Below, in pieces: positions 24,562 to 25,596 of a stretch of 64,000 nt of DNA. The stretch lies in NCBI RefSeq assembly GCF_030384885.1, contig NZ_CP128613.1; one strand, given 5' to 3'. Position 1 is the first letter of the stretch. Every line of letters begins with the position of its first letter. A program made the translations under genes and the position numbers. The stretch comes from Escherichia coli (lineage in GTDB: Bacteria; Pseudomonadota; Gammaproteobacteria; Enterobacterales; Enterobacteriaceae). A model generated the notes under the pieces. It had not been told where the DNA came from. It did no database searches and worked only from the letters and a program-made list of their open reading frames with translations.

Positions 24562-25452
24562 ATGATCAAGAAGACAACGGAAATTGATGCCATCTTGTTA
24601 AATCTCAATAAGGCTATCGATGCCCACTACCAGTGGCTGGTGAGTATGTTTCACAGCGTGGTCGCGAGAGATGCCAGTAAGCCAGAAATAACGGATAACC
24701 ATTCTTATGGACTGTGCCAGTTTGGTCGGTGGATTGATCATCAGGGGCCACTCGATAACGATGAATTACCTTACGTTCGGCTAATGGATTCTGCCCATCA
24801 ACATATGCATAACTGTGGTCGGGAATTAATGCTGGCTATTGTTGAAAATCGCTGGCATGACGCACATTTCGACGCCTTTCAGGAAGGGTTGCTTTCTTTT
24901 ACTGCGGCATTAACCGATTACAAAATTTATTTGCTGACGATCCGTAGCAATATGGATGTTTTGACGGGTTTGCCGGGGCGTCGGGTTCTTGATGAATCCT
25001 TCGATCATCAGTTACGCAATGCTGAACCTCTGAATCTTTATTTAATGTTGTTGGATATTGACCGATTTAAATTGGTTAATGATACCTACGGGCATTTAAT
25101 CGGCGATGTAGTATTACGCACCCTCGCAACTTACTTAGCCAGTTGGACGCGCGATTACGAAACGGTTTATCGCTACGGGGGCGAAGAATTTATCATTATT
25201 GTCAAAGCGGCTAATGATGAAGAAGCATGTCGTGCAGGTATCAGAATTTGCCAGTTAGTCGATAACCATGCCATCACACATTCTGAAGGGCATATCAACA
25301 TTACCGTGACAGCAGGTGTGAGTCGCGCATTTCCTGAAGAATCTCTGGATGTGGTCATTGGAAGAGCGGACAGGGCAATGTATGAGGGTAAGCAAACCGG
25401 AAGAAATCGCTGCATGTTTATTGACGAACAAAATGTGATTAACCGAGTTTAA
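24562..25452 (+). CDS. dgcZ: Zinc-sensing diguanylate cyclase DgcZ (CZB + GGDEF domains)
   Basis: 296 aa MIKKTTEIDAILLNLNKAIDAHYQWL...; GGEEF active-site motif (RYGGEEF); AAGGAG RBS before the ATG at 24562. Confidence 0.9.
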   Translation: MIKKTTEIDAILLNLNKAIDAHYQWLVSMFHSVVARDASKPEITDNHSYGLCQFGRWIDHQGPLDNDELPYVRLMDSAHQHMHNCGRELMLAIVENRWHDAHFDAFQEGLLSFTAALTDYKIYLLTIRSNMDVLTGLPGRRVLDESFDHQLRNAEPLNLYLMLLDIDRFKLVNDTYGHLIGDVVLRTLATYLASWTRDYETVYRYGGEEFIIIVKAANDEEACRAGIRICQLVDNHAITHSEGHINITVTAGVSRAFPEESLDVVIGRADRAMYEGKQTGRNRCMFIDEQNVINRV

Positions 25453-25462
25453 GCTCCGTTTA
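25446..25462 (+). promoter_or_regulatory. Candidate PhoP box (aGTTTA-N5-cGTTTA direct repeat)
   Basis: Hexamer direct repeat with 11-bp periodicity overlapping the dgcZ stop, matching the PhoP box consensus (T/G)GTTTA-N5-(T/G)GTTTA. Confidence 0.45.
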
Positions 25463-25474
25463 ACATTCATTGAG

Positions 25475-25596
25475 AAAACTGATGCTACTGTGTCAACGAT
25501 CCGTTATCAGTGCAGGAAAATGCCTGTTAGCGTAAAAGCAAAACACAAATCTATCCATGCAAGCATTCACCGCCGGTTTACTGGCGGTTTTTTTTC
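25475..25596 (+). ncRNA. mgrR: Candidate PhoP-dependent small RNA (MgrR-like); 5' end approximate
   Basis: PhoP box at 25446-25462 followed about 110 nt later by a GC stem plus T8 terminator (25571-25596) in a CDS-free gap; mgrR is known to lie next to mgtS/yneM. Confidence 0.35.
25571..25596 (+). terminator. Rho-independent terminator (CCGCCGG-loop-CGGCGG then T8)
   Basis: GC-rich hairpin followed by TTTTTTTT on the plus strand. Confidence 0.6.

Follow-up and report, generated by a model that had tools for sequence, protein, structure and literature searches.

The segment between dgcZ and mgtS of the Escherichia coli chromosome studied here is almost certainly mgrR, the gene for a 98-nt, Hfq-dependent small RNA (sRNA) that is activated by PhoQ/PhoP and pairs with its targets through a seed. 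The gene occupies positions 25498-25595 on the plus strand of the window (i.e., the whole stretch of 64,000 nt that was analysed), as placed by the alignment with the K-12 gene and by the published numbering of the RNA; the Rfam family RF01407 matches there too. An earlier note, drawn up from the letters of the DNA, had proposed an "MgrR-like" candidate at this place; the sRNA is real, but it is mgrR itself and not merely something like it, with 97 of 98 nt identical to the K-12 gene (99% column identity in the alignment). The call was right and concerns a known gene: mgrR, known since 2009, has curated entries in K-12, in EcoCyc-type annotation and in Rfam, which leaves little discovery value. 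Nevertheless, a real sRNA gene had been pinpointed without tools, purely by the grammar of promoter and terminator. The original description is reportedly that of Moon and Gottesman in 2009.

In the K-12 MG1655 record, the ncRNA gene mgrR (b4698) is found at 1622817-1622914 on the minus strand, between mgtS-mgtT (plus strand) and dgcZ (minus strand), and shares the strand of the latter. This is the known location to which the earlier note had appealed; the K-12 position and strand had been fixed beforehand as the point on which its proposal could fall, and the alignment came out in its favour. Its statement that the RNA would be PhoPQ-activated and convergent with mgtS likewise agrees with the literature, in which mgtS and dgcZ are the flanking genes of mgrR, and mgrR and mgtS are convergent and both PhoPQ-dependent. 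What was computed here is the identity of the gene, its position and strand, its anatomy, the conservation of its promoter and the complementarity of its seed.

The window gene and K-12 MgrR have the same locus, strand, neighbours, length of 98 nt, seed, A-rich region and terminator, and they differ solely at nt 4 (position 25501), which is C in the window and T (U in the RNA) in K-12; the window carries the allele of the cross-genus consensus, GAUCC. Over positions 25400-25700, many RefSeq E. coli chromosomes show 100% identity to the window, and the mgrR region was found in 5414 of 5426 complete genomes. One point is of practical use: the RefSeq (PGAP) annotation of NZ_CP027579.1 (loci L001 and L080 of our scan), a strain identical to the window that corresponds to positions 1-50000, is without an mgrR feature. 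In the same strain, the annotation treats rspA and dcp as frameshifted pseudogenes. Prophage-type genes occur at 1-5900 and 13737-23076, beside ynfF (an LPD38-domain protein, Hok/Gef, Ant and ead/Ea22-like).

The Rfam family RF01407 (STnc560), which was built from an Hfq-bound RNA of Salmonella, matches the window over the full length of its model (positions 1-214) at 25464-25677, with 280.2 bits against a gathering score of 55 (E = 4.9e-64). The Salmonella loci L050 and L062 have promoter, seed and terminator in common with the window mgrR. The equivalence of STnc560 and MgrR is suggested by this sequence match; our literature search for the two names found no paper that equates them. The model, at 214 nt, covers far more than the 98-nt RNA: its left end is in the promoter (25464), its first helix lies over the -10 region, and on the right it takes in the mgtS terminator and all of the mgtT ORF before ending at 25677, 7 nt inside the end of mgtS; its last helix corresponds to the hairpin 25613-25643 on the mgtS strand. 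Since the model extends beyond the RNA on both sides, its bounds should not serve as transcript ends.

The published landmarks of the RNA are these: 98 nt, a guanosine at position 41, a pairing region U55-A68 and a 3' run of eight U (PMC6239178), all of which land on the correct bases if nt 1 is 25498. The minimum free energy (MFE) fold of the 98-nt sequence (-25.9 kcal/mol, z = -2.9) consists of two stem-loops with a mostly single-stranded centre, in agreement with published nuclease probing, by which the 5' and 3' stem-loops are stable (PMC6239178). The 5' stem-loop spans nt 5-35 (25502-25532, plus strand) and is followed by an A-rich, ARN-like stretch (25533-25551), unpaired in the fold, which the literature regards as the site bound by the distal face of Hfq, placing MgrR among the Class II sRNAs (PMC6239178). 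In the orthologues described below, columns nt 40, 43, 45, 46, 48, 51 and 52 of this stretch are invariant or at least 90% conserved, and other parts vary. The sequence determinants expected for Hfq (the ARN-like stretch and the U8 tail) are present; the binding itself is from the literature. Class II Hfq sRNAs such as ChiX likewise have an ARN-type A-rich site and a U-rich 3' tail, and compete strongly for Hfq (PMC6239178), but in sequence, regulon and inducing signal MgrR and ChiX are unrelated.

The Rho-independent terminator (25569-25595, plus strand), identified by a terminator scan and by the fold, has a hairpin at 25569-25588 of eight pairs, six of them G-C, with a loop of four, and eight U at 25588-25595, followed by a C at 25596. 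The earlier note had described precisely such a GC hairpin with a T8 tail, about 110 nt downstream of its PhoP repeat; the two are 107 nt apart, which bears out its figure. It is the only terminator-like site on the plus strand in 25300-25950, and the only intrinsic terminator downstream of dgcZ.

To see which of these elements are kept, we scanned one genome per species with a pattern of seed and terminator, which yielded 77 loci (74 distinct sequences) in about 20 genera, almost all of them Enterobacteriaceae (Escherichia, Salmonella, Citrobacter, Enterobacter, Lelliottia, Leclercia, Kosakonia, Trabulsiella, Yokenella, Pluralibacter and others). The gathering score of RF01407 was passed by 17 of 20 diverse enterobacterial loci. 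With a start assumed 7 nt past the conserved -10 in each, the orthologous RNAs are 89-103 nt long, and exactly 98 nt in the window. RNAalifold on a MAFFT alignment of the orthologues recovered the terminator only, a limit that we attribute to the variable 5' region being aligned without regard to structure; each orthologue was therefore folded separately. A 5' hairpin is then predicted at the equivalent place in nearly all of the 74, in differing sequences and followed by the A-rich tract, with a shifted 5' helix in one (L073). The consensus terminator stem has one compensatory pair position (A-U to G-C in 17 sequences).

Some of these loci are of interest in their own right. Enterobacteriaceae bacterium RIT691 (L024) has two MgrR copies 1.6 kb apart, at 2996-3160 and 1402-1566 (minus strand), both of which pass the RF01407 threshold; the copy adjacent to mgtS has unrelated upstream sequence and no PhoP box. 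Enterobacterial mgrR-mgtS also occurs on contigs labelled as a Caldithrix MAG (L008, where MgtS is 100% that of E. coli) and as a Chryseobacterium isolate (L053), most likely by contamination or mis-binning. In Kosakonia-type loci, a match to STnc100 (RF02076) is found about 1.1-1.4 kb from mgrR (L077, 460-637; L022, 643-827; L020, 2901-3095).

The seed, UAUCCAUGCAAGCA (nt 55-68, 14 nt; 25552-25565 on the plus strand), is defined by the literature (PMC6239178) and by a predicted duplex with eptB. Its invariance across our loci, together with that of CCGC, is a product of the search pattern itself. MgrR represses eptB and ygdQ through nt 55-68 (PMC6239178) and is also reported to contact pitA and rpoS. 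With the full-length RNA, RNAduplex gave a long, meaningless duplex that was no better than shuffles, and the single-stranded centre was used instead: its best predicted duplex with K-12 eptB, at -17.6 kcal/mol, joins the seed, nt 55-68, to -7 to +8 over the AUG (nt 54-69 with -8 to +9 at its full extent). The position is that of the published site, while the shuffling control is weak to moderate (75 of 1000 shuffles were equally good). The duplex was computed on the K-12 gene, the strain's own eptB lying outside the window.

The region around the repeat reads aaccgAGTTTAagctcCGTTTAacattcATTGAgaaaactgaTGcTACTGTgtcaacGATCCG. The earlier note had seen in it a "perfect" direct repeat with the geometry of a PhoP box, overlapping the dgcZ stop. 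Both hexamers are there, aGTTTA (25446-25451) and cGTTTA (25457-25462), separated by agctc, and the stop codon TAA (25450-25452) does lie within the first; the repeat is perfect in its 5-nt core, GTTTA, but not at consensus position 1, where both hexamers miss the T/G. Its second hexamer is conserved, but the box that is common to the genera lies one hexamer (11 bp) further downstream. The start of MgrR, at 25498, is 36 nt past the repeat and not immediately after it.

In the 74 distinct sequences, four positions of the GTTTA at 25458-25462 are invariant, with the third T kept in 72. Invariant too are TT at 25470-25471, G25484 (with T25483 in 73), A25487 (with T25486 in 71) and T25491, and no gap occurs anywhere between these positions. 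The resulting consensus is (C/T)GTTTA-N5-(C/T)(A/G)TT(G/T)A at 25457-25473 and, at 25483-25491, an extended -10, TGnTAnnnT, with a spacer of 12 bp between the box and the -10. In the window, this conserved PhoP box reads cGTTTA-acatt-cATTGA (25457-25473, plus strand) and covers the -35 region, from -41 to -25; this is the reported location of PhoP boxes in E. coli promoters (PMC7667037). The box ends at 25473, the extended -10, TGcTACTGT (25483-25491, plus strand), has its hexamer at 25486-25491, and 25498 is the first nucleotide of the RNA; a canonical -35 hexamer is lacking. A scan of 25300-25950 with the sigma-70 consensus found no promoter, as is expected of an activator-dependent promoter without a -35 hexamer. 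We rejected an alternative start about 7 nt past AAAACT (25475-25480), 12 bp after the repeat of the earlier note, which would give an RNA of about 110 nt, since the positions concerned are not conserved and both K-12 and the published numbering fit 25498.

The PhoP-activated promoters of mgtA, mgrB, phoP and mgtS have in common with that of mgrR a GTTTA-type direct repeat in 11-bp phase over the -35 region, 12 bp to the -10 and the lack of a -35 hexamer. The mgrR promoter differs from this type in its degenerate promoter-proximal hexamer (cATTGA) and, in E. coli, in a third, perfect GTTTA one turn upstream, in the end of dgcZ. In the convergent mgtS promoter (25833-25867, minus strand), cGTTTA (25856-25851) lies 12 bp upstream of TAATAT (25838-25833) and the upstream half-site is weak (AATTCA, 25867-25862), in the same geometry as the conserved box of mgrR.

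As a motif by itself, the repeat is weak evidence. The degenerate form KGTTTA-N5-KGTTTA with up to two mismatches has 24 matches in the window where 18 are expected and does not discriminate; with the relaxed consensus no rarer than chance, it is context and conservation that give the case its strength. Of the exact core GTTTA-N6-GTTTA there are two copies in the 64 kb against 0.12 expected, a count that is reached by 1 of 100 shuffles. The second copy, TGTTTAGCCATCGTTTA at 55305-55321 (plus strand), is the best match to the PhoP-box consensus in the window (one mismatch); being located within an autotransporter CDS (ECSE_1600 family), it is probably a chance match and was not taken for a PhoP box. 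One might then suppose that the repeat at 25446-25462 is itself a chance occurrence beside the terminator of dgcZ, with no separate sRNA gene, as the relaxed consensus is not enriched in the window over shuffles. We give this next to no credence: the region is nearly identical to an experimentally studied sRNA at the same position and scores 280 bits with RF01407, and, irrespective of dgcZ, its promoter, 5' hairpin, seed and terminator have been retained across genera. The Rfam match, the annotation of and alignment with K-12 and the promoter conservation over 74 loci effectively refute it.

The first hexamer, aGTTTA (25446-25451, plus strand; -52 to -47), is a third element resembling a PhoP half-site and coincides with the last codon (GTT) and stop (TAA) of dgcZ. 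It could be that the operative PhoP site in E. coli is made of hexamers 1 and 2 (25446-25462; -52 to -36), a helical turn further upstream than usual, with hexamer 3 in a minor role. Of all sites in the region, these two match the consensus best: neither GTTTA core deviates, and the two mismatches to (T/G)GTTTA-N5-(T/G)GTTTA fall at the degenerate first position, compared with four for the conserved box in E. coli (and just one for the conserved box in Lelliottia, L037). Hexamers 1 and 2 are moreover in exact 11-bp phase with the conserved box and nearly fixed in E. coli, where 5140 of 5416 records carry the promoter segment 25440-25500 without any change, and PhoP boxes further upstream than -35 have been reported for other promoters (PMC7667037). 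Yet we consider this arrangement unlikely. The information content of hexamer 1 is at most 0.34 bit per column over the 74 loci, and exact GTTTA in this phase is restricted to E. coli and E. whittamii; the element reads GTTTT in a cryptic E. coli lineage (L011), is one base off phase in E. albertii and is missing in many genera whose promoter is otherwise retained. A weak enrichment of GTTAA-like 5-mers at -13 to -10 is seen in roughly half of the loci, and many genera have none. MgrR is reported to be PhoP/Q-activated in Salmonella as well, and hexamer 3 and its fixed distance of 12 bp to the -10 are conserved throughout the loci; hexamer 1 is, furthermore, also constrained by the last codon and stop of dgcZ. 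The box of the earlier note thus combines one half of the conserved box with an extra, Escherichia-specific repeat that coincides with the last codon and stop of dgcZ.

In the divergent lineage just mentioned (L011, strain SCPM-O-B-8794, about 9990-10066 on the minus strand), dgcZ has TTA instead of the stop TAA, and its ORF would gain seven codons, through the PhoP box to a TGA within cATTGA (frame read manually).

The upstream neighbour dgcZ encodes a diguanylate cyclase (24562-25452, plus strand; ORF list and RefSeq annotation of the identical strain). In the 45-nt gap between its stop and the start of mgrR (25453-25497, plus strand), neither the terminator scan nor the fold found a terminator or a stable hairpin. 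Transcripts of dgcZ should, consequently, end at the MgrR terminator and hold the full MgrR sequence as their 3'UTR. This same gap is what would allow MgrR to be mainly a dgcZ 3'UTR product, processed from read-through transcripts and not a primary, PhoP-driven transcript, an origin that we regard as very improbable: the PhoP box and the extended -10 are conserved in genera without a detected dgcZ homologue within 3 kb, including Salmonella, and in published work the signals of mgrR-lacZ transcriptional fusions and of Northern blots track PhoP (PMC3536696). Within 3 kb upstream of mgrR, dgcZ was detected in Escherichia and Citrobacter loci only, and the persistence of mgrR where dgcZ is undetected argues for an independent gene and against a derivative of the dgcZ 3'UTR. 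Escherichia, Citrobacter, Salmonella, Kosakonia, Pluralibacter and Yokenella retain the linkage with mgtS; Enterobacter, Lelliottia and Leclercia do not.

On the other side, the convergent, PhoP-activated neighbour mgtS (25671-25766, minus strand; 31 aa, from ORF translation and annotation) has the translation MLGNMNVFMAVLGIILFSGFLAAYFSHKWDD. Contrary to the earlier note, the space between dgcZ and mgtS is not free of coding sequence: RefSeq annotates there the small ORF mgtT (34 aa; 25567-25671, minus strand; also in the Weaver et al. preprint), which runs across the hairpin and the T-run, is antisense to the last 29 nt of MgrR including the terminator, and overlaps the mgtS stop by 1 nt. The mgtS-mgtT operon is PhoQ-dependent (literature). 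A second terminator-like structure lies on this strand at 25605-25643, a strong GC hairpin (25613-25643) followed by five U (25605-25609), with z = -4.2 in the minus-strand fold; it is within the mgtT ORF, back-to-back with the MgrR terminator, and is probably the terminator of mgtS. If both terminators work, the convergent transcripts would end about 9 nt apart, and mgtT would require read-through.

PhoP dependence, Hfq binding and targets are taken from the literature, where direct activation by PhoP is documented by an mgrR-lacZ fusion and by Northern signals of MgrR, both of which drop when PhoP synthesis is repressed (PMC3536696). In the resulting scheme, PhoQ would sense low Mg2+/Ca2+, and phosphorylated PhoP would bind the box over the -35 region, with cGTTTA-N5-cATTGA as the core and the extra aGTTTA upstream, and recruit RNA polymerase to the extended -10 promoter, which has no -35 hexamer. 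Transcription would proceed from G25498 to the hairpin and U8 (25569-25595) to yield the 98-nt MgrR, and the seed of the Hfq-bound RNA would pair with the translation-initiation regions of targets such as eptB and ygdQ and repress them; repression of eptB would change the phosphoethanolamine modification of LPS and the sensitivity to antimicrobial peptides. The sequence evidence is fully consistent with this account from the literature, and nothing in the window departs from it.

The positions of the mgrR promoter that are under constraint, namely hexamers 2 and 3 and the extended -10, should be useful in designing promoter mutants and in the use of PmgrR as a PhoP reporter. Beyond the established account, a joint reading may be put forward as a distinctly long shot, in which the mgrR promoter of Escherichia is a three-hexamer PhoP array (aGTTTA, cGTTTA and cATTGA in 11-bp phase) and every dgcZ mRNA carries the complete MgrR as its 3'UTR. 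If the array were true, its newest and best hexamer would have been born from the last codon and stop of dgcZ; a second binding register or cooperative binding of PhoP would be possible in E. coli, and the Mg2+ threshold for MgrR could differ from that in Salmonella or Enterobacter. Likewise, read-through from dgcZ, if true, would tie a c-di-GMP gene that is under Zn/Cpx control to the MgrR regulon without any need for PhoP.
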